Below the pieces are notes generated by a model that made no database searches, was not told the origin of the DNA, and saw only the letters and a program-made list of their open reading frames with translations. A stretch of DNA of 63,579 nt, counting the filler, from Collodictyon triciliatum (lineage: Eukaryota): NCBI GenBank assembly GCA_043381765.1. It is 7 parts of 7 records of this genome, joined end to end, with 100 filler letters (N's around TTAATTAATTAA, not from the genome) between each part and the next. Parts side by side here need not be neighbours in the genome. Positions count along the whole stretch, not along the records: positions 29,231 to 40,912 come from JBHJMP010002333.1; 6 more parts are not named here. One strand, written 5' to 3'. This document shows, in pieces, positions 33,201 through 59,556 of this stretch. A program made the position numbers and the translations under genes. Position 1 is the stretch's first letter; each line of letters begins with the position of its first letter.

Positions 33201-36194
33201 CACTTGTACACTTGGATGCTGAATATAATGAAGAATCCCAATCATTTAGATTGTATCCTGGCAAAAATTTGATTGTCATGTACCACATACATGCAACTGA
33301 AATTTTTATAAGTATTCGAAAATACGATGCTGGAGATTATGGAGAAGCTGCCGACAAATTCAAGATGTTTGATATTCTTTCTTTCATAATTCGACAAATT
33401 TCATCTATCCGACCAAATTTTGTTCAGGTTTGTCGACTTGGATGCCCGGATTGTCAGCGCCTGGGAATGAATGGTTATATTGAGGCCTCAAAACTGGATG
33501 AGTCAGAGCTACTCTATTGTACAGAGAAACACAAACCTAATTTAAAACTGGTGCATCAAGGGCGTATTTATATGGAACAAGGTAAAAATGAATAACATTT
33601 ATAAAGTGAAGCTGTGCATAATTGCAAACCAATACATACGGGCATAAATGTATAAAAACTAATAATAATTTCTACTTTTTAATACAAAACTGATTGCGAC
33701 AAAGGAATATCAAGGCGATTTCAGTCAGTCATGAAGGCAAGAAAGGCACAAATGTCACAAGAATACAATGGACTGCATGATATTATATCAATAGATAATG
33801 AGTTGGGGAGATTGAGAGACCTTTGGATAAGTGAAACCATCGAACTAGTAGAGTACCTTGCTAAAGGTGCATACGGAAGAGTCTATATAACAAATTACAA
33901 AGGAAAAAGCGCAGTTGTAAAAATCCAAACTATCCAAAAAAGTCAGGAACAAAATATAAGTGAAATCATTCAATCGGTTATAATTGAGAGCAAATATTTG
34001 CACTTGTGTCGGGAATGCGAGAATATTGTTAGGTTATTTGGAGTAAACCGGAAAGATGATGATTTTTACATGATTATGGAAAATGCTGGGATATCGTTGA
34101 AAACAATGATAGAGAGCAAAAACATAAAACCAAGCTTACATCAAGTTGTTTCATACACAAAGCAAATATGTCAAGGTCTTATTTTCATGCATAGTAAGAG
34201 TCTGTATCACGAAGATTTGAAAGCCGACAACGTTATGATTATCGACGAAACAGTGAAAATTGTTGACTTTGGGATTGTAAGTCTTCGTGGCAAGGAGAAA
34301 ATCGGCTCAAACTTGCCTACAAGATTCGGGGAATGGAAACAAGGCGGAACTTCAAACTGGCAAGCACCAGAAATTCACGATATTGCTTGTAAACCCTTTT
34401 ACGAAGATAGGGTTGAGTACGGAGAAGATGAAATTAATATAGGACACAGAGGAGAACCCAGTAATGTATATGCTGTGGGAATGATTGTTTGGTATATGTT
34501 CTCAGGCTATGAGCCTTTCCAAAATGAGACCCAGACACAGAGTTTTATCATCAGAGGATTAAGACCTGAAATATGTAGAGAAACTACTCGTGAAATCGAA
34601 CATTTAATTAAAGTATGTTGGAAACAAAACTACAAGGTTCGACCAAGTTTAGAAAAAATTATGGAGTTTGTCACTGTATTGCTTTCTAACAATTTCATTC
34701 TCTCGCATGACGAATTGATTGAACTGCTTCCCACAAAATATTCTCCCTTATCAGACATGTATCACGGAGAGTTTGTGGAATGGCTCCGAGATAATGGCTT
34801 CAAAAAATTAAGTGTGAAGATTTCGTTGCAAGACTGGAATACTATTGAGGACATTCAAGACAAACTGAGTGAAAAAACCATGCTAGATATGTATCATATA
34901 TCCTCAAGCGACGTTGTAGCATTTATTGAATTATCAAAGCAGTTTGTGGAAGAAGGAAACTCTGAATCTCAAAAGAAAGTTCAAGAATTATTTTATTCAC
35001 AACTGTATAGTTATCTGCAAAAAAAGCAGGATGAAAAATCGCAAAAATTACTTCAAAAAGTGAAGGCGTTGCGACTCGATGGAAAGATTATATCTATGCT
35101 TGACCAGTCAGATGTTCATGAAAAGCATTCTTTTTCTGAGCAGGAAATCTCGACCGTATTTAAATTTATAACCGATTATTCGCAATTTAATGACTTGGAA
35201 TCGACCAAAATGCCGTTGGATAAATGTGCACTGCAAAAATTGGAGGAAATACAACGAATGAACTTAAAATATGACCCTGGAAATCGTGGAATCCAGTATG
35301 CAACTTCTTTGCGGATGAACGATCTTCATCTCTATGAGATCCCGGGTTCTGTTGGACTCTTAATAGAGCTGAAAAGCTTATATTTAAGTTCAAACATGGT
35401 AAATGTTATATTTAATTAAGATATAACGCTAGGGTAAATATTGCTATGGAAAAATTAGCTCAGTATTCTTTTCCATGCTCAAAATTAGTTGAATGCATTT
35501 CCTGGGCCATGCGTTTTGTTGACCAACCTGCAATTACTTGATTTGTCCCATAACCTGGTACTTTTGTATTTATCACCATATTAATAAACCTGAGCTTATT
35601 TTTTTGATTCTTTCTGAAGAGAAATTCTCACCTAAATACAATAGATTTCTTCATTGCCATCTGTTATATCGACTCTAGATAGTCTCACACGCTTAGACAT
35701 ACAGGAAAACCCAGTGAGACTCAACTTTCTTTCAAACATTGAATTAATGAAAATAAAAATAGAATTTCAAATGTCCAAATTACCTACTTGTATTACATTA
35801 ATTAAATTTCGTAAAAATTCCACAGATAGAAGAACTCCCTGTAGAAATCATGACCTTGACCTGTCTTAGTATCTTAAAAGTTGAAAATGCGATGGGTGGA
35901 TTAAGCGTATCAAGAGCACCCCGAGGAATCACTAATCTTCCGTGTTGCACTGAGTCAAGTGGCACAGGACTGGGATTCATCACTAAAATTAAACTCTACG
36001 ATCACGTAATTTTTAATATATTCTATTTCTTATTCTCTCCTGACGATTATGATTGTTCTTATTATCAGGAGGAGGTTATTCATGACCTAGATACTCTACC
36101 AGCTCCCGCAGATGTGGAGGCCCAACCAGGTCCTTCAAATGGAAAAAAAAAGAAAACAGGAAAGAAGAAGAAAAAAAAATGTAACATAAGCTAG
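30231..36194 (+). CDS. Roco protein: LRR - Roc GTPase - COR - protein kinase - helical region - LRR - polybasic CaaX
   Basis: LRRs; Roc motifs GEGEAGKTT, WDFGGQ, GTHKD; COR motif ALKFLHDLGTIVWY..VFLDP; intron ~33582-33703 joins the kinase (AKGAYG, HEDLKADN, DFG, WQAPE); further LRR exons; ends KKKKKKCNIS*. Confidence 0.92.
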
Positions 36195-36268
36195 TCCCAC
36201 AGACTAAATACAAAGAGCGTGGTCCTTCTGTTACAGCCAATAAATTTTCTTGCATTTGGAGCAAAAAA

Positions 36269-36311
36269 TGTGGAATTTGTAACTCCATAATATATAGTTA
36301 CAAATTCCACA
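36269..36311. terminator. Perfect 16-bp inverted repeat with 11-nt loop (terminator/3'-processing hairpin or recombination site)
   Basis: TGTGGAATTTGTAACT (36269-36284) and AGTTACAAATTCCACA (36296-36311). The structure is certain; the function is inferred. Confidence 0.5.
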
Positions 36312-36397
36312 GCGAACCTTGTGAACCTCAAAAGTTCAGGGGTTTATATACACCTTTTTGCGTAGACCACAGAACATTACACCCTTAATTAACGCTT

Positions 36398-36470
36398 ACC
36401 TTCCATATATATCCATCTTCCGCCCTCGACCACCGAACACCTTCCATTTATATCCATCTTCCACCCTCGA
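36398..36470. repeat. Two 32-bp direct repeats separated by 9 bp
   Basis: ACCTTCCATATATATCCATCTTCCGCCCTCGA (36398-36429) vs ACCTTCCATTTATATCCATCTTCCACCCTCGA (36439-36470), 2 mismatches. Confidence 0.9.
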
Positions 36471-36502
36471 TACAATTTGGTACGCAATACTAAATTGTAA
36501 CA

Positions 36503-36649
36503 TCACACATCATCGGCGCTCCCCTTATCAAACTCTACCTCGCTCCCGCAACACTTGCTGCGCTTCACATGTTTGAGCGTATACTTCCACAGCCGCTCAA
36601 CAACCAACACCACAGTAAACAATAGTCCAATCAAAGTCACAGGCTCCAT
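36503..36649 (-). CDS. 48-aa single-TM protein with RSKCCG motif (putative viral membrane protein)
   Basis: MEPVTLIGLLFTVVLVVERLWKYTLKHVKRSKCCGSEVEFDKGSADDV. The ATG lies 17 bp after the capsid-like gene's stop, on the same strand. Confidence 0.65.
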   Translation of the reverse strand: MEPVTLIGLLFTVVLVVERLWKYTLKHVKRSKCCGSEVEFDKGSADDV

Positions 36650-36665
36650 ATGCTCACATATATTT

Positions 36666-38225
36666 TTATTCGACACGGAAGGTTTGCTGGTTGCTCTGAA
36701 TTTCAAGCACAGCATCATACAGACTAGCCACCAGTACATTGTACGACTTTGTTGCAGAGTTGTCTACAAACTCAAGTCTTAGCGACATTAGCCCCGACCC
36801 GCTATTTTGAATATCTGTACCTACTATTTCCCCTTCGGCTACATCAAGCACTTTACGCAAATTAAAAGCCAACATAAACTCACAAGGGTTCTGGACACCC
36901 TCACGCAAAAATCTCTGGACGACTCCTGTATCAGCGTCTTCCAATCCTGTGCCGTCAGCTTGTCTCGTCCCAGCATAAGAAGTGTCAGTACATTCTATTC
37001 CTACACGGCCATACGGTGATAAAACATTTACACCTCCTAATTGTTGTGCAGTCGGCTGGGTATCAGTGAATCCTTCTGTCAAATTAAATGTGCGATCAGT
37101 AGACGGCTGAGCAAACTGATTACCATCAAAAGCAAATGGCCCAGTATATTCACTCCTAACAAATGTGAGCCCCATCGCTTTCTGGACCTCGAGGAATACT
37201 TGTGTTGCTCCATTCAGGCAGTCCATCGGTTGCAGAGGATAGTAGAATGAGCCAAGCTGAAGCTGGGCACTCTTTAATTGCTGCGGGAAATGCTTGCGGT
37301 CACGCCCAGGGATAAGTATCTTGCCCTGCTCACTGGCGTCAAAGAATGCTACATATACGGCGTTCAAACTCTTGACAGTATCATTGATATTGTAAGTAAT
37401 ATTCTGTTGTGCTGCCGGTAAAGAATAAAGCGACGTCCTCCAGGTCTTATAGGGGATTTGTAATGGCACTCCACGTGATATACTGGACTGAAGCTGAGCG
37501 TGATATTCAGGGGCCATTCTTACCAGATCGTATGATAGATAACACGCAGTAATTTCATATGTCGCTGTTGTATCCGGAGTCCCCAATCCAGCATTAGCAG
37601 CTGAGCTTCGATTGTATGCCTGCATACACTGATTCGCAGGAGCCAGCTCTATTTCTATCTGGAACGCAGCAGTTGTGTCAATCAAGGACGTAGAGATTAG
37701 TCCCGAGTACTGACTGATTCCTGATAGGCGCAGAGGTATCGTATAATTTCTTTTTACCAAAGCTGAATTAAAATCGTTGAGTGTCTGACGATGATACCTA
37801 ATTCGATCATAGGAATTCCCGATTCCCATTGTCGCTGCACCCACGCACTTGTTGTAGTCGTCAGCCACGAAGTTCATAAAGATCGAATCAAGGTAATTAT
37901 ACCGTTGTATATCCTCTAAAAGGAAACTAGTACCTTTCCTAATTCGGAGTGTTTGGATAATTGATTCAATTGAGTTGTTGAAAAAGTAATCGTGTGTGGC
38001 GGCTGTTCCAGTTCCTACAACGGGTATGATGTCAAAGTGAATCATCAACGTGTCCATGTCTATTTCCATTCCAGTTTCAGAAGGAATGTTCCAGAGGATT
38101 CTGTCTACTTTAGTCGGTCCGAATACGCCTCCGTTGAATGGGGTTACTTTGGTGGTGTGACGGGCCAGAACTTTGTCATTATAGTTCCGAATCTTCATGT
38201 ACTTTGCCTCGCTAGGATACTCCAT
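36666..38225 (-). CDS. Putative double-jelly-roll major capsid protein (PLV-like), 519 aa
   Basis: Intronless and beta-rich. Motifs VTPFNGGVFGP..ILWNIP..IDMDTLMIHFD, SIIQTLRI..LLEDIQRYNYL, QIEIELAP, YLSYDLV, QLQLGSFYYPLQP, FMLAFNLRKV and LYDAVLEI follow the pattern I recognise from PLV MCPs. No profile search was run. Confidence 0.8.
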   Translation of the reverse strand: MEYPSEAKYMKIRNYNDKVLARHTTKVTPFNGGVFGPTKVDRILWNIPSETGMEIDMDTLMIHFDIIPVVGTGTAATHDYFFNNSIESIIQTLRIRKGTSFLLEDIQRYNYLDSIFMNFVADDYNKCVGAATMGIGNSYDRIRYHRQTLNDFNSALVKRNYTIPLRLSGISQYSGLISTSLIDTTAAFQIEIELAPANQCMQAYNRSSAANAGLGTPDTTATYEITACYLSYDLVRMAPEYHAQLQSSISRGVPLQIPYKTWRTSLYSLPAAQQNITYNINDTVKSLNAVYVAFFDASEQGKILIPGRDRKHFPQQLKSAQLQLGSFYYPLQPMDCLNGATQVFLEVQKAMGLTFVRSEYTGPFAFDGNQFAQPSTDRTFNLTEGFTDTQPTAQQLGGVNVLSPYGRVGIECTDTSYAGTRQADGTGLEDADTGVVQRFLREGVQNPCEFMLAFNLRKVLDVAEGEIVGTDIQNSGSGLMSLRLEFVDNSATKSYNVLVASLYDAVLEIQSNQQTFRVE

Positions 38226-38236
38226 GCATACGGCAA

Positions 38237-38543
38237 GAAATTAATTTCAGATCAAACGCGCCCCAAGAATAAAATGGGCATTGGCATGTCTCTGTGTTTT
38301 ACCTACTGCTCAACCCCCCTTTTAGGGCCCTTCAAAACTACTTTTAACTTGACCTTACCTTAGATGAAATTGGGTAAGGTAAGGTATATTTTCTACCGAC
38401 TTTCTATATTTTAGGGGTTGAACAAGTAAGGATGAACATAGGATGAACATAAAGTTATGAGACTAAAAGAAGTAAGGGAACACCCGAATGCCCATTTTCT
38501 TCTGGAGGATGAACAGGACTTGAACAGGACTTGAACAGGGGTT
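38237..38543. promoter_or_regulatory. Structured intergenic region: palindrome, nested inverted repeats and 11-bp tandem repeats
   Basis: Palindrome GAAATTAATTTC 38237-38248. Inverted pairs 38266-38282/38487-38503, 38310-38317/38414-38421 and 38352-38362/38375-38385. Tandem AGGATGAACAT x2 and TGAACAGGACT x~3. Confidence 0.55.
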
Positions 38544-38552
38544 GTGCATTGT

Positions 38553-38912
38553 TTACCTAAATCTCAATTCCCGCCCGTGAGTGGCCAGCGCATAAGCCTG
38601 ACCCAGGTCGTGTATGCCAGAGCCTAAACTCTTTGTATTCATTTTCTTAATGTCCAGGTCCCCCAGAGTGCTCAGCCCCCTACCGAGGTAATTGGCTGCC
38701 TTGATAGTGGTGACCAGGGGGTTGGTGATGGTCTGGATGGCGGGCTTTACTCCCGTAGAGGTCAATAAATTGTCGACTAACCCCATGCTGGCATCGTCGA
38801 GTTTCACATATGCGTTATTGAGTCCCTCTAGTCGTCGTATTGCTCTGTCAGTTGATGTAGTAAGAAACCGCCCTACCCCTCGTGCTCCTCGTTGTGCGTA
38901 GTTTACAATCAT
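38553..38912 (-). CDS. 119-aa orphan, basic/amphipathic helical protein (putative virion core or membrane-active protein)
   Basis: ATG-started intronless ORF on the same strand as the capsid-like gene. G/A/L/T/R-rich, no Cys or Trp. Confidence 0.6.
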   Translation of the reverse strand: MIVNYAQRGARGVGRFLTTSTDRAIRRLEGLNNAYVKLDDASMGLVDNLLTSTGVKPAIQTITNPLVTTIKAANYLGRGLSTLGDLDIKKMNTKSLGSGIHDLGQAYALATHGRELRFR

Positions 38913-38944
38913 ACTGGGGCACAGATAAAAATCTAGGGTAAAGC

Positions 38945-40912
38945 ATGAGCAGATTTACTCCAGGCCAAAAAGATAAAATAGAGGGAGACATTTATGATGC
39001 TTTGAAATTTGAGGACAGAGCAAATACAAAAACATCAGGAAAGATTATAACTAAATACAGGACAAAATTAAAAAGCCTATGGGATGGAAAAGGCAAGGGG
39101 CGCTCAGAAAACTTACTATTACCAAGCTTAAAAGAATACATAAACCCTGACGGTGAGAAATATTTTAAAAAGCGTGTACCGACACAGCACGCAGCAATTG
39201 TAAATCAAATTGCCGTACTGCGTTTTCCAAAAGACACGCCTGAAGAATCATACGCTGCAGCAGAAGAAGAGATAAAGAAAGCATTAGAAGAAGATAAAGA
39301 ATTTCAGCACAAATACTTTAGAAATATATGGGCACTTACACCAAAAGCAGACGGTGGAGGACACCATTTAACATCATGGGCTAATTTAAATACTGCGTTC
39401 TCATATGCATATTTTTCTGCTGGAATAGAAGCTGAAAATATTCCTGATCCTTCCCCGCAACCAGCCCCTTCCCAGCCAGCTACACGCCGTGTAAGTCCAG
39501 GCGATGCAAGGTCAGAATCAACCGCAGTTGCTGCACCGGCCCGACTCCCACCGGTTGAAGAAGGAGAAGACCCAGAAGAAGACCCAGAAGAAGACCCAGA
39601 AGAAGACCCAGAAGAAGACCCAGAAGAAGACCCAGAAGAAGACCCAGAAGAAGACCCAGAAGAACAAGAAGAAGAAGAACAAGAAGAAGAAGGTGAATGG
39701 GAGCCTGATATTACCGAAGACGAAATGATACAAAGACGACTTACACTACGGGAACAACTGAAGAGAAAGAAGGAAGTTTTTCTGATGCCCTATCTTCAGG
39801 TACGTAAGCGAGGAATAGCACAAGCAGACCACTTACATGCTATTGGCAATCAAATACTGGCAAGGTTACGAGACAGAAACATTATAGATAATTATAAAGA
39901 TCTGCCTTCGCTAAATTCACAAATAGAATTTTTAGAAGCAGCCGATGAAATGATTGTTGACCATTTTGGAGGAGAACCAGTCTTGTTAGCGCTACATGAA
40001 TTAGCAGACGAAGATAGAGCCCCTGACCTCTCATTTAACTATGCTCAGATTGAAACTTTAATGCTTTCTAAGCTAGCTATTGAAGAATTGTATATCGAAA
40101 AAGTTAAGAAACAAATAGCTGACGTGGCACGTGCTAAACGAGCAGCCGCACTAGAAAATAAAAGAAGAGAAGCCGCACTCAAAGAACAACAAAGAAAAAA
40201 AGAAATACTAGACCGCAAACTTCAAATAAGAGCTCAACAAAATCAAAATCCAGAAGCTAATGAGAGACAGAAATTAGCTAATGAAATCGCTGATCTGAGA
40301 AAAGAATTAGATTCTCAAACAGCTACGGCCTCGGTTAATCCTTCACAAGTACCACTGACTTTTCAGAAACAGCTTGAAATTGTTAATCTTCGCAAACAGT
40401 TAGAAGCAATGAATGCACAAAATGAATCATTAATACAGAGTGCTGATATAGCTGAGACCAACATAATGACTGCCAATTTAATACAAGACATAGTGGAACT
40501 ACAACGAGCCGCTGTACGTGTGGCAGCCATCGAACAACTGGCCGAAGACGCAGAACAACAACAGATCGATTTGCTGCTAAACGATTATCCTGACTTACTG
40601 GATCAACAACTCGAAATATTAGATCAACAGTTTTTATTGTATGACTTTCTGACACCCAAGAAAATTTCACGACAACTTGACGAATCTCTTCAATCTTTGA
40701 TTTCTAATGTCGCTAGTCGCAATCTCTCTTTTGAAAGCGCACTAGACACATCCATCCAAGTTAACGCAGATGACCCAGACACAACCGGAATTAACGATCA
40801 AGGTGGGTACCTCACAGCCGCACAGTCACCCATCCTTACACCTGTACAATCAGCACCAGCAACTCCTTTTATGTCACCTGCCAGACCCGGACCCCAAGCA
40901 AGACTAGGAGGC
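38945..40912 (+). CDS. Large orphan viral ORF (>656 aa, truncated): basic N-terminus, (EEDP)n acidic tract, coiled coil
   Basis: Open for ~2 kb with no introns until the contig end. 12-bp tandem repeat GAAGAAGACCCA at 39566-39658. Confidence 0.8.
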
Positions 40913-41398
40913 NNNNNNNNNNNNNNNNNNNNNNNNNNNNNNNNNNNNNNNNNNNNTTAATTAATTAANNNNNNNNNNNNNNNNNNNNNNNNNNNNNNNN
41001 NNNNNNNNNNNNAAACAACATCACCCAAACAACCCCCTCCACAAATAAAAAAAAAAAAAAAAAAGGAGAGAAACAACACGAAGCAAATACATAACGCTCG
41101 ATTCCTTTGGGAGCCATGAATGCCATGCCCCTTCATATATCCGTAGTTACAGATCATCCTTATGATTCTTCACTCACCCATCCAAACACCCTTGTATACT
41201 CCCTGTATTTTTTCAAATTCTACTTCTTTTTTTTCGCCAAGTATGAGACTTAGCTTTTGAGTCAGAATTCAACACTGGGCCAAAAAAAGAAAGAAAGAAC
41301 AGAGTACACACTGCTTCTTTTTCTTGCTTTTCCTTTCTTTATTTCATTTTTTTCCCGAACAGCCAAGATCATTATTTCTTGTTAGTGCAGAGGCGACT

Positions 41399-42472
41399 AT
41401 GAACGGAGATCTTCAAGCACAAATCCAAGCAGGCACGAGACTCCGGAAGGCAGAGACCAACGACCGATCGGCACCGAGCAACGCTGGTAGGAGACACAAT
41501 CCCGTATTCCATTTCCCTTCTCCGCGGGTTGTCATGAGTGTTAACGCCAACAAAATAACATCAAGCAAAAGGGAAACATTTCATACACGCCCATAACCGC
41601 ACATGATAAACCAAATCAGAAAACACAACCCTAGCATCGATAAATAATACAGAGTCCCACATACATACATACATCCAAGTCTATAATTATGTACATGTAT
41701 ATACCAGTAGCATCGCACGGCTATCTGCCCCTCACAACAGCACAAAAACTCTGCAGGAAAAGTCGGGACCCCAGCCCGCCCCGTCCACGGCCCTCCGCCC
41801 ACCCGGCCAACCCTCCCGCCCCCCACCACGATCCCACCAGCCCGCCCGAATCTTCCGCCGCCGCCACCACCCTCACAATCCACATTGGCATCCCCAAATC
41901 CCACCACGGCTCCACCAACTCGCCCGACTCTGCCACCATCACCACCAATCCCGCAATCCACACTGGCACCGCCAAATCCCACCACGGCCCCACCAACTCG
42001 CCCGAATCTTCCGCCGCCGCCACCACCCCCGCAATCCACACTGGCACCGCCAAATCCCACCACGGCCCCACCAACCCGCCCGACTCTTCCGCCGCCGCCT
42101 CCACCGCCGACTCGTGGCCGGTCGACATCTGCATCAACGTCAACGTCAACATCGGCCTCTGCGCAGCGCTTTGTGTTCCCATCGCCCGATTCGTTCCCGC
42201 CGCCGCCGCCGTTGTCCAACCGGGCGAAAGCGTACTCGGCGAAGCCTGCATCGGCGGACGAGGACGAAGCCTCCGACACGTTCGGCGACCCTGCACGGGC
42301 TGCCCACCCCAACGGCCCTCCTCCGGCTCGACGCCCGGGCGCCCCCGACCGCCCTGCTGTGGCCGCTAAGCCCCGCACTACCGTCCGCTACACCGTCATC
42401 CAGCCAGCCGAGCAGACCGCCTCGTCCAGTCGCAGGGTTCCTTTGGGTCAGCCCCCTGTATCGCCACGCTAG
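41399..42472 (+). CDS. WH2-domain, proline-rich WIP/verprolin-like actin regulator
   Basis: Exon 1 (41399-41486) LQAQIQAGTRLRKAETNDRSAP matches the WIP-type WH2 motif. GT-AG intron 41487-41756 joins in frame to polyproline repeats (three QSTLA.PNPTTAPPTRP.LPP units). Confidence 0.82.
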
Positions 42473-43288
42473 GCGTTTGCTGCTCTCAGGTCTTGTTTGC
42501 AACATACTTTATCCTTCTTTTTTTTTTTTTACCCCTCTTTTCGCCCTAATCATCTATTCTTTAATTTTTGGAATGATTTTGTTGTATGATTTGATGTCAA
42601 GGACTACTTTTGGTCTTCTTTGTTCTTGCTTTTTTCCATTCAGGGGTGTGTGATAATGTGCTGTGTTTATTCGGTGAGAGAAAGTAAAAGTGTTATTCTT
42701 GCGTTGAATCGAATTGAATGCACCTCCTCCTCCTTGGAAAAGATCTCCGGACAATTAAAATCATGTTTGTATGCACGCAGGCAGAAATCTGATGATGATA
42801 ATGATGCGGAGAACAACAAAGTCTGACACAATAATATTGTTTAAAAAAAATCCAACAAATGAAGTCAAAACACTCCCAGGACCGATTGCTGCCCTGGTTT
42901 GGGCGGTTTTCTGGGGATGTTTGAACCACCATCTTTCTTTCTTTCCTTTAACTTCTACTCACTAAAGCAACAACGAATAATTCTGCTACGAGAAAAAGAT
43001 AAAGGAAAGAAATACAAAGCACACCATTGTCGCCAAAAACGTTATTATCCTCTCATTTCCCCATTCACCATCCTATTTTCTTCGTTTGTCCCCACGTTAT
43101 TCCCTCTTCGTTTTCACTGCCGTCTTTTTTTATTGACAATAAAATTTTATTCGTGAAAAAATAATACTCTATGGACTACAGGCATATGAATGACGATGTG
43201 TGTGTTCATTTTTATTGTATTTTAATCAATGAAGAAAGATGGTAGCTGGGTGACAGAAGAAAAAGAAGCACAAGAGAGGGAGGAAATT

Positions 43289-44121
43289 CTATGCCAGTCT
43301 TGAGGCAGCAGCCTCCAAGAAATCCAAATGTTTTTTGATGTCTCGACTGAGTGGAAAAAAGAATTGAAGTTTTTTTTATTGTCTTTCTACAGTTTCTTAA
43401 AGCCAAATAAAAAAATTTTTTTAAAGGCAACGCAAAATAAGGAGGATACCAATTTAATTTGTTTTCATGCCAAAATAGAAGTAGATAATTCATAGCAATT
43501 AATTCATCCAAATGCACTAAATTCACCAATAAGATATCATCTGAATGAAATACAAAGAGAAATAGAAGCATGTAAAACGTTCATACATTTGCAGGGCGAG
43601 GCTGTCCATATACTTTAGGTCTTCATCCAGTTGAATGCATTTCTTTACGAAATCTTCTGATGTCTGCACAGTGGACTGTACTGCCTCCGACATATGTGTG
43701 ATAGACCTTTCAAATGCCACCACGTTTTGCAATGTGACCGACGTAACCTTTTCAAAAATGAAAATGAAGATAAAGGTAAAGATAAAGAGTGCGAGTGTTG
43801 TTATTTCGGAATCCGAGGCAAAGTCTCTAGGAACATGGTTGTATGAATCTAAAAAAAAAAAAAAAAAATTACACCCAGATGTAAAAAGAGAAATAGAGAA
43901 GAAGAAAAAGTACTGTCTGCAACGAAGATTGAAGCGTGTGTGTAAACTGAGTCAAAGCGCTTGAAACTTGAGCAGCCTGTCGCTCAATCTCCACGATTGT
44001 CCTCTCATCCAGAACAGGGAAAAACTTGTGCTGCTTCTCCTGGATACTCTCCAAGCATAAGGCAAAAGAAGCCGCAAAGAACCCCAAAGGATAAAAATAG
44101 AGGATAGATGACAAAGTATAG

Positions 44122-44196
<75 letters not shown>

Positions 44197-44710
44197 TAAC
44201 AATAACAATAATAAAGGATCAACGCGGTGCAATGACAGTCCAGACACGTACCCGATCCCACACCTCCATGACGGTTATCGTCTGTCCCTCGTGGTCAGGC
44301 TTCAAGACAACCTCCTTGTCGTCTCCGTGGTAAATGAGCGCCTGCTCAGAGACAAGCACGAAGTTGTAGCCGAGAGCAAAAGGAAGAGGCAGACTCTCGT
44401 CGATGCGCAAGGACAGCGAAAGACTCCAGCCGTCTGCCGAGCCTTCGTGGGAAGGGCCTCCCAATGCCCCGCCACTCCAGCCCCTACTGGTTGCAGCCGC
44501 AGTGGCCGCGTCTCGCGCAGGATCGTCGCCTTCGCGCTCGTCATGCGGCTCGTGGCGGTGTTCCTGAGGCGTCGGGTGCAGCAGATCGGGGGCTGCCAGA
44601 GGATCGCTGAGCCCGAGACCCGGGTGGTTGCCCACAACAACAAGCCGCTCGTGCGGTCCCTTCGGCAGGGGAAGGTCGGGGCCCGAGAGGACGAAGCGCA
44701 GGTGGATCAT
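43289..44710 (-). CDS. BORCS6: CBM20-like domain fused to BORCS6 (lyspersin) C-terminal helical domain, ~267 aa
   Basis: Exons 44710-44252, 44039-43914, 43747-43587 and 43346-43289 splice in frame via GT-AG introns. C-terminal PVLDERTIVEIERQA...CIQLDEDLKYMDSLALQIRDIKKHLDFLE resembles BORCS6. N-terminal LVVVGNHPGLGLSDP..WSLSL..YNFVL resembles CBM20. Confidence 0.75.
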
Positions 44711-46757: not shown

Positions 46758-46939
46758 GTATGTTTTTTTTTTTTTTTTTAAAAAAAAAAAATAATCTTTT
46801 CTTTTTTTTTTTTATAATTTAAAATATTTTTTTTTTTNNNNNNNNNNNNNNNNNNNNNNNNNNNNNNNNNNNNNNNNNNNNTTAATTAATTAANNNNNNN
46901 NNNNNNNNNNNNNNNNNNNNNNNNNNNNNNNNNNNNNGA

Positions 46940-58408: not shown

Positions 58409-59556
58409 CTAACGATATATTTTCATTCACTATGGTCTTTATTAATTTATGATTCATGAACAGCATATAAAAAGTAGAGCTTTTCATGGTCATTCGACGT
58501 TTTTTTATTTTTTTATTTTTTGTTTTTGTTTTTGTTTTTGTTTTTGTTTTTGTTTTTGTTTTTGTTTTTGTTTTTGTTTTTGTTTTTGTTTTTGTTTTTG
58601 TTTTTGTTTNNNNNNNNNNNNNNNNNNNNNNNNNNNNNNNNNNNNNNNNNNNNTTAATTAATTAANNNNNNNNNNNNNNNNNNNNNNNNNNNNNNNNNNN
58701 NNNNNNNNNCGACGTCCCCCGCATCGTGGCAGCCCTTGAGGCAGTTCTGTGCCGGCCCGCAGGGATGAGCTTCTAGGCCCAACTCAGCTTTATCCAAACC
58801 CTCTACTCCGCATCACACCACACATAGACTACTGGCCATCTCTAATCAGACCGCGTACTTTCCCGAACCCCCAATCCGGCCCTGCTCTGTAACGCGGCCG
58901 CCTGCGCCCCGCGAAAACTCTCCATCCTCATTTCCCATGCCTAATATGTCCTGACACAACGTCACTAGAATAAAACTTATATCCTCGGTAGCCCTTCTCA
59001 GTGCTGACCCTTTGCCCTTGCTCGCACCACGACTGGGAGTTCAGCCTGCGGACGTGTCCCACGCGCGACGCAGTCTGAGTCCATCAGTCCTTGGTTTTTG
59101 TCCATAGGGTCGGTGACGGACTTGGTCATTTCCATGTGACCGCTACAGTAGAAAAGGATGTGATTAATCACAGAAAAGAAGACTGTGGATCACTCTACCA
59201 GCAACTAGGCCTTGCTCAGATAGTTGACATATTGTGCAAATTTTTTTTAATGTATATAGAAATTTCTATATACTTGACGAGAGTAACATTTGTCAAGAAT
59301 AATTTTCCACAAACAAATAATGTGGGCATATGCATTTCTGGAAATTAAAATCTTCGCTCAGCCAAACCGAGGAGAAAACTGCCAGCCGAGACCACACAAC
59401 TCCTGATTTGCAGCAAGCAGCAAGAAACAAGAAACAAGAAACATAGAAGAAGAAAGAAGAAAAAAAAAGAAAGAGAAAAACCAAATAACAAGTCCACAAC
59501 CAGCGCATCTAATCTCAGTACACAGATCACCGCGAGCCCCAACAAGCGAGACAGAA

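Follow-up and report, generated by a model that had tools for sequence, protein, structure and literature searches.

A capsid-gene module of Polinton-like virus type, probably integrated downstream of a Roco gene in Collodictyon triciliatum

Organization of the Locus

The DNA analyzed here, referred to throughout as the window, is a 63.6-kb stretch taken from the genome assembly of the protist Collodictyon triciliatum (GCA_043381765.1), in which seven contigs are joined end to end by N44-TTAATTAATTAA-N44 linkers and features are not readable across the joins. Our subject is the segment from 36269 to 40912, which forms the end of an 11.7-kb contig (29231-40912) that carries a host gene of the Roco type together with viral DNA and has no linker inside it. 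We think it moderately probable that this segment is the capsid-module end of a virus of Polinton-like virus (PLV) type with a double jelly-roll (DJR) capsid protein, most likely an integrated endogenous copy lying downstream of the Roco gene.

Four intronless open reading frames (ORFs), all free of stops and frameshifts, run from 36269 to the contig end behind the intron-bearing host gene. This is the arrangement that a first-pass annotation of the sequence had described, including the absence of visible disruptions and a start of the element about 75 bp after the Roco stop codon; position 36269 lies 74 nt past that stop. Nearest to the host gene is the gene for a 48-aa protein (36503-36649, minus strand), whose N-terminal hydrophobic helix (hydropathy 2.26 across the first 17 residues) leads into a basic stretch and a CCG motif. 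The next gene, intact and on the same strand (36666-38225), encodes a 519-aa protein assigned by fold and family comparison as the major capsid protein (MCP), and its location adjoining the host side agrees with the earlier remark that the MCP sits near the end of the element. Beyond a long spacer lies the gene for a conserved 119-aa virus protein (38553-38912, minus strand). Divergent from it runs a large ORF (38945-40912, plus strand), which measures 656 aa or more and whose 3' end is open into the linker at 40913. Its product combines an acidic (EEDP)n tract with a long coiled-coil-like part rich in Q, E and K; a repeat search located the 12-nt tandem repeat that codes for the tract at 39550-39669 (plus strand). 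The linker itself (40913-41012) marks a contig end and is not biology, and the contig that follows is unrelated.

The Capsid Protein

On the evidence of its predicted structure, we identify the 519-aa protein with high confidence as a DJR MCP. An AlphaFold2 model built from a 39-sequence alignment reached a predicted local distance difference test score (pLDDT) of 81.1 and a predicted template modeling score (pTM) of 0.82. A Foldseek search of the PDB with this model returned 265 matches at E≤0.001, headed by the MCP of Singapore grouper iridovirus (SGIV; E 3.6e-16) and including those of the virophages Sputnik (7.5e-13) and mavirus (1.7e-12) as well as the solved MCPs of faustovirus and Paramecium bursaria chlorella virus 1 (PBCV-1), with many solved MCPs falling between 3.6e-16 and 1e-11. 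Among the 50 BFVD matches listed, the named ones are nearly all capsid proteins of nucleocytoplasmic large DNA viruses (NCLDVs), virophages, adomaviruses, an adintovirus and a MELD virus; one further match is TVS1, an uncharacterized protein (E 2.1e-9). Superposition with VIA-align, which spans residues 17-512 of the MCP, gave Z scores of 25.8 for faustovirus (root-mean-square deviation, rmsd, 3.2 over 358 aligned residues), 24.9 for PBCV-1 and 23.9 for p72 of African swine fever virus (ASFV) among the NCLDVs, and of 19.7 for Sputnik, 17.0 for mavirus, 16.5 for PRD1 P3 and ~15 for adenovirus hexons. The first-pass annotation had proposed the DJR fold from four sequence motifs; the AlphaFold2, Foldseek and VIA-align comparisons bear the fold out, and all four motifs are present in the protein on invariant columns of the 39-sequence alignment (P29/N31/F35, N46/P48, E104/D105/Y109 and D504-E508).

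At the sequence level, 41 homologues were found among public proteins from metagenomes and assemblies, with identities of 38-86% and E values from 0 to 2e-68, and none of them carries a Pfam domain or a name. Because of these homologues, the 519-aa ORF is not a product of chance. At E≤1e-3 the wider family amounts to 128 representative clusters. Pfam and PHROGs gave no match at E≤1 for the 519-aa, 119-aa and 48-aa proteins. Neither phmmer nor a family profile found an MCP among PDB sequences for the 519-aa protein, and at the gathering score it matches neither Capsid_NCLDV (PF04451) nor Capsid_N (PF16903) of Pfam; three of 71 distant relatives gave weak, sub-threshold Capsid_N matches. The ESM-Atlas neighbors of the protein are viral clusters; Preplasmiviricota is the most frequent phylum in the majority of them, with Uroviricota leading in the first and Nucleocytoviricota in the third, which we treat as a lead only.

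Conserved Gene Order in Related Contigs

Gene order around the MCP was compared in eleven related metagenome contigs (L001-L011), each of at most 6.3 kb, of which L001 is the closest locus (75% identical in the MCP). A homologue of the 119-aa protein (114-124 aa) lies directly upstream of the MCP gene in all five loci that cover this position, with identities of 59% in L006 (E 2.5e-43), 45% in L003, 33% in L005, 28% in L004 and 24% in L008. Directly downstream of the MCP gene, all eight loci that cover the 3' flank have a homologue of the 48-aa protein (47-54 aa), and the window protein is 67.5% identical over 40 aa to those of L001, L002 and L003 (E ~1e-18). The 48-aa gene is co-directional with the MCP gene in the closer clade (L001, L002, L003 and L005) and convergent with it in the distant clade (L007, L009, L010 and L011). 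The term orphan, which the first-pass annotation had applied to the genes accompanying the MCP, is thus wrong for the 119-aa and 48-aa genes, conserved in synteny in 5/5 and 8/8 contigs, and stands for the large ORF, for which no homologue is detectable.

A divergent large ORF precedes the block in each of the five contigs that cover that side (L003, L004, L005, L006 and L008); it is whole in L003 (1015 aa) and L005 (467 aa) and cut by the contig end in the other three. The L003 and L005 proteins have a C-terminal domain alone in common (29% identity, E 2e-5), and the large ORF of the window, which occupies the same position, is cut before that domain. Among 5.8 billion proteins it found one low-complexity match and no significant homologue, and its similarity to the L003 counterpart is of coiled-coil type only (E 0.13). 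We set aside as noise an RPA43_OB match over low-complexity sequence (E 0.0012; 19.7 bits, below the cut-off of 27.6) and the sub-threshold matches to LCIB_C_CA (E 0.43) and to two PHROGs (E 0.34-0.38).

Besides the block, the related contigs carry genes of other kinds. Small proteins of the DUF5754 type, a family which we take to be associated with NCLDVs, are encoded near the MCP and 48-aa genes in L007 (1559-1885), L010 (407-697), L011 (615-941) and L003 (5745-6113). The L010 protein scores above the Pfam cut-off, those of L007 and L011 are sub-threshold, and that of L003 is linked to the latter two by blastp (E ~1e-24); the element in the window has no protein of this type. With a GIY-YIG-like start and an AT-hook-like basic protein as additional neighbors, the surroundings of the block in relatives are typical of the gene pool of small viruses and giant viruses. 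Upstream of the capsid block in L005 (1-1081) stand two tandem paralogues, one of 265 aa and one a fragment, 42% identical over 86 aa, which have a penton-like look and viral clusters as ESM neighbors and match nothing in Pfam or the PDB. They may be duplicated penton genes, the AlphaFold2 model of the ORF at 284-1081 (pLDDT 37) having left the penton fold unconfirmed; such duplications are reported for some Trimcap B viruses (bioRxiv 10.64898/2026.06.19.733378).

The longest contigs of three separate MCP clusters (P0015, P0020 and P0021) measure 16.9, 17.2 and 17.2 kb, and from these lengths we suggest genomes of ~17 kb in the related viruses, an indirect fit to the PLV genome range of roughly 14-45 kb. 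Pattern scans of IMG/VR with the family alignment, two sister-clade proteins and the sister-clade alignment found no relative, and a scan of 185,579 prokaryote genomes of GTDB did not find any either.

In the broad sense of Bellas and Sommaruga (2026; bioRxiv 10.64898/2026.06.19.733378), PLVs are defined by a capsid module of DJR MCP, A32-like ATPase and minor capsid protein, and of this module the MCP alone is seen in the 4.6 kb before the cut at 40912. With that cut, no A32-like ATPase occurs in the 4.6 kb or among window ORFs of at least 130 aa, and neither a penton (single jelly-roll) protein nor pPolB, an RVE integrase or an adenovirus-type cysteine protease was found in the window. A search for other virus genes elsewhere in the window was likewise negative. 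The first-pass annotation had already reported that packaging ATPase, penton, integrase and polymerase were not visible, and the present searches agree.

The Junction with the Host Gene

Host and viral parts are contiguous on one contig, and sequence composition changes between them: GC content is 0.365 in the host part vs. 0.432 in the viral part, and codon use, compared with that of the host exons by cosine, gives 0.98 for host exons and values of 0.84, 0.86 and 0.64 for the viral genes. Host DNA probably reaches 36194, because the host ORF reads through an A-rich tract to a polybasic and CaaX-like end. The only low-complexity tract at the junction is this A/G-rich stretch (36143-36179), which lies inside the host ORF, and the interval 36195-36502 has no repeat in common with the rest of the window. 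An AATAAA hexamer at 36239-36244 (plus strand), 45 nt after the host stop, is a possible polyadenylation signal; it stands at a normal distance past the stop, which speaks for a true junction, and by our own estimate such a hexamer would occur by chance in the 74-nt gap in about 7% of cases. Virus-like DNA reaches at least to 36281, because a contig of one environmental run (X2, record 7) aligns with 36281-36408 at ~80-83% identity.

Public sequencing runs were also compared with the junction region; the best of them contains a fraction of 0.14 of the words sampled from 35700-37200, and there is no RNA run among those listed. The contigs of four environmental runs (X1-X4) contain viral pieces that are 97-100% identical to parts of the element: 600 nt with 15 differences in X1 (record 2), 151 nt with two differences and 168 nt with one in X2 (records 8 and 9), 248 nt with three in X3 (record 17) and 176 nt with none in X4 (record 25). 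None of these contigs spans 36194-36281, and the host stretch 35000-36140 is uncovered in all four runs except for low figures in the bin 35594-35791 (6.33 in X2, 3.17 in X3), a lack of cover that counts neither for nor against integration or expression.

The host gene occupies 29231-36194 (plus strand), as delimited by Pfam matches, GT..AG introns read directly and the ORF list. From its domain order, a Roc GTPase followed by COR, together with LRR and kinase domains, its predicted product is a Roco protein. An LRR exon lies at 30231-30638 (LRR_8, 3.2e-10) and is accompanied by further LRR exons, the Roc and COR-A exons at 31859-33595 (4.4e-19 and 7.9e-12) and the protein kinase exons at 33731-35419 (Pkinase, 4.3e-37), all on the plus strand and separated by short GT..AG introns. 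Among the 120 matches listed for the Roc-COR exon, relatives are only 22-29% identical and the named ones are bacterial. The last exon (36069-36194), with its boundary placed at the AG at 36066-36068, ends in KKKKKKCNIS* with the stop at 36192-36194. A polybasic stretch followed by CNIS* resembles a CaaX-like prenylation signal, which would not usually be expected on a large Roco kinase; as the Cys occupies exactly the fourth codon ahead of the stop, we take this end as probably a genuine prenylation-type C-terminus.

Noncoding Features of the Element and Other Contigs

The host-side edge of the viral DNA is formed by a near-perfect palindrome (36269-36311) with a 16-bp stem and an 11-nt loop, for which the folding energy is -15.5 kcal/mol (z -6.0, with none of 200 shuffles as good) and whose 15-nt arm is found nowhere else in the window. 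Judged from its sequence and position, it could be the terminus of the element, a recombination site or a terminator hairpin; a 16-nt match to the arm in L003 (6153-6168, E 0.33) is probably due to chance. Two imperfect 41-nt direct repeats, 73% alike, occupy noncoding DNA between the palindrome and the 48-aa gene (36377-36458), and a short hairpin with 12-nt arms lies just 3' of that gene (36471-36499, minus strand). Hairpins are also present in L001, L003 and L005 at, or up to ~40 nt downstream of, the end of the 48-aa gene. These gene-end hairpins resemble the hairpin rule of mimivirus transcripts and, by this analogy, provide only a lead toward a lifestyle dependent on giant viruses.

The spacer between the 119-aa and MCP genes (38226-38552) is unusually long, at 327 nt compared with 21-48 nt in the five relatives that cover it. 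It contains six TGAACA motifs, all on the plus strand and set as two triplets in a span of 119 nt (38419-38537), out of 39 in the 63.6-kb window, as well as a 29-nt imperfect inverted repeat (38261-38289 and 38480-38508) and a hairpin (38347-38385). A miniature inverted-repeat transposable element (MITE) as the source of the spacer and a repeat at the junction were both considered and rejected, as neither sequence turned up a second time in the window or the related loci.

The remainder of the window belongs to other contigs of an assembly that is strongly fragmented (contigs of ~5-12 kb), with linkers at 8417-8516, 20230-20329, 29131-29230, 46838-46937 and 58610-58709 in addition to the one at 40913-41012, and with a plain gap of 73 Ns at 895-967. 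A natural TTAATTAATTAA without Ns occurs at 24660. In the contig at 20330-29130, host ORFs between 24700 and 28217 carry WD40 repeats and then Ephrin_rec_like, TNFR-like and NCD3G Cys-rich repeats (Pfam), and they resemble a large Cys-rich surface or receptor-type protein. The contig at 41013-46837 contains, over 41581-42653 and 43869-44261, a GC-rich (0.47-0.53) repetitive stretch with several frames open (Gly/Pro-rich repeats) and, adjoining it, long trinucleotide microsatellites that give poly-N, poly-Y and poly-L ORFs; all this looks like low-complexity rather than genic sequence. Across the whole window, no Rfam family was matched.

Origin of the Element

In the reading proposed at the outset, a PLV-type capsid module integrated behind the Roco gene, the assignment of virus type draws on the fold of the MCP, the small gene-dense contigs, the relatives in lake metagenomes and, as a lead, the viral ESM-Atlas neighbors. 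A PLV-type origin, as put forward in the first-pass annotation, is on these grounds the best reading. The further proposal of a possibly intact, reactivatable provirus is not supported by this sequence, in which a single 4.6-kb module is present and its fourth gene is cut at the contig end. As to an undescribed lineage, the family indeed has no clade name that we could find; at least 41 relatives, however, are present among public metagenome and assembly proteins. Should the proposed reading be right, trimers of the MCP would build the icosahedral shell of the particle, the 119-aa protein would serve, like the 48-aa transmembrane protein, as a component of the virion or of its assembly, and the large, fast-evolving coiled-coil and acidic protein would have a structural or scaffolding part. 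The element would have entered the host genome recently, or would belong to a virus that still circulates, and the rest of its genome (~17 kb in relatives) would lie beyond the contig break or be missing.

Several observations weigh against this reading. The case for integration comes from one short contig in a fragmented assembly, only one end of the element is visible, and composition changes at the junction. A single module is seen, and membership of the PLVs depends on the MCP fold and on the neighbors of relatives, among which the penton-like ORF of L005 did not receive a confirmed fold (pLDDT 37). The family and its nearest sister clade did not appear in the IMG/VR pattern scans, so that no complete reference genome was seen. 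Finally, the eight relatives that extend past the 48-aa gene (L001, L002, L003, L005, L007 and L009-L011) have more virus ORFs there, in the place where host DNA follows here, and the present copy may therefore be truncated or differently arranged.

These observations bear on three alternative explanations, of which two concern the state and placement of the viral DNA. That the segment is a truncated or partial viral fragment, either a dead remnant or a domesticated cluster of capsid genes rather than a provirus, strikes us as somewhat unlikely. In 8/8 relatives further virus ORFs follow the 48-aa gene and here host DNA begins after ~230-310 nt, the 327-nt spacer in place of the 21-48 nt of five relatives suggests rearrangement or insertion, and the window has no other virus gene; on the other hand, all four frames are open with the family-invariant residues of the MCP kept, the 97-100% identical pieces in environmental runs leave little time for decay, and the contig break hides the other side of an element whose closest known locus, L001, is only 75% identical in the MCP. 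A chimeric contig, in which the assembler joined to host DNA 4.6 kb belonging to another organism or to a virus that was free or co-occurred in the sample, is favored by the fragmented assembly of ~5-12-kb contigs, by the shift in composition and codon use, by the nearly identical viral pieces in four environmental runs and by the lack of a junction-bearing run among the public ones. A de Bruijn assembler could also have been misled by the low-complexity A/G-rich tract at 36143-36179, to which many unrelated metagenome contigs have matches. The host frame, however, continues past that tract to the Cys four codons before the stop, the interval 36195-36281 has no repeat common to anything else in the window, the AATAAA follows the stop at a normal distance, and a recent insertion would be expected to shift composition just as much. 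We therefore regard a chimera as rather unlikely and a true integration at the Roco junction as likely.

The third alternative concerns the kind of virus, namely that the module comes not from a narrow-sense PLV (Aquintoviricetes) but from a small lineage related to NCLDVs (Mriyavirus-, Zephyr- or VC40-like) or from a virophage. NCLDV MCPs are the best structural neighbors (Z 24-26), with virophage MCPs lower (17-20); this ranking, however, does not discriminate, since PLV MCPs in general structurally resemble those of NCLDVs. The weak, sub-threshold Capsid_N matches of 3/71 distant relatives favor an NCLDV affinity, as does the ~17-kb reach of the relatives' contigs, given the description of NCLDV-like VC40 viruses of 15-20 kb with few recognizable genes and of Zephyr viruses with no known host (bioRxiv 10.64898/2026.06.19.733378). 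Against it, the MCP in the window matches neither Capsid_NCLDV nor Capsid_N in Pfam and has no sequence match to any solved MCP, and most Zephyr genomes come from IMG/VR (bioRxiv 10.64898/2026.06.19.733378), where this family was not found. Taken together, we judge such an origin to be distinctly unlikely and retain the PLV-type capsid module as the preferred reading.

Significance

Endogenous PLVs in protists are known by the tens of thousands, and an insertion of this kind is not in itself new. What is mildly new is confined to the conserved small genes that flank the MCP gene and to the absence of the clade from the IMG/VR scans. As it stands, the element adds one partial example to the PLV and virophage insertions documented at large scale in protists. 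Most PLV clades recovered from metagenomes have no known host, so that a verified junction would, if true, assign one such clade to a host; it would also provide an intact set of capsid genes for expression and structural work.

A more far-reaching combination of these points is conceivable and, taken as a whole, improbable. It holds that the integration is true, that it ties an unnamed freshwater clade of DJR viruses with genomes of ~17 kb to a host for the first time, that the virus is still circulating, because four environmental runs contain pieces with 97-100% identity, and that the element is latent in the manner of a virophage. The clade would be marked by the block of 119-aa, MCP and 48-aa genes with a preceding large variable ORF, and neither it nor its sister was found in IMG/VR. 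Within this combination, the hairpins at or near gene ends and the DUF5754 and GIY-YIG neighbors of relatives would hint at a giant-virus-dependent lifestyle in a Roco-rich protist.

Comparison with Known Systems

The MCP resembles those of NCLDVs (faustovirus, PBCV-1 Vp54 and ASFV p72) most closely in structure, with Z scores of 23.9-25.8 and rmsd values of 3.0-3.2 over 330-358 aligned residues, but sequence identity is only 9-10%, Capsid_NCLDV and Capsid_N find no match, and the relatives lie on contigs of about 17 kb at most rather than in giant genomes. With virophage MCPs (Sputnik 3j26 and mavirus 6g44/6g45) it has the same fold over the whole chain (361-374 residues aligned), whereas Z scores are lower than for NCLDV MCPs, there is no sequence-level match, and neither protease nor ATPase of virophage type is visible. 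Maverick/Polinton elements and adintoviruses likewise have a DJR capsid, an adintovirus capsid protein standing among the top BFVD matches at E 1.4e-15, and theirs is an established integration in eukaryotic genomes; unlike Maverick/Polinton elements, the present segment has no visible pPolB, RVE integrase or adenovirus-type protease.

The endogenous PLVs of protists offer the nearest parallel, even though the present segment shows no ATPase, penton, integrase or replication gene. The available portions of the main text of the PLV preprint (bioRxiv 10.64898/2026.06.19.733378) contain no description of the block of 119-aa, MCP and 48-aa genes with a large variable ORF ahead of it. Protist genomes carry tens to thousands of endogenous viral elements (EVEs) of PLV and virophage type, 14-40 kb in length, which break short-read assemblies (Bellas et al., 2023; PMC10120064), and the contig break inside the present element fits this account of EVEs that defeat short-read assembly (PMC10120064). 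In common with endogenous protist PLVs, the element has a DJR MCP on small, intronless and gene-dense DNA that adjoins intron-bearing protist genes, its close relatives occur in lake metagenomes, and the ~17-kb contigs of those relatives fall within the size range of PLVs.

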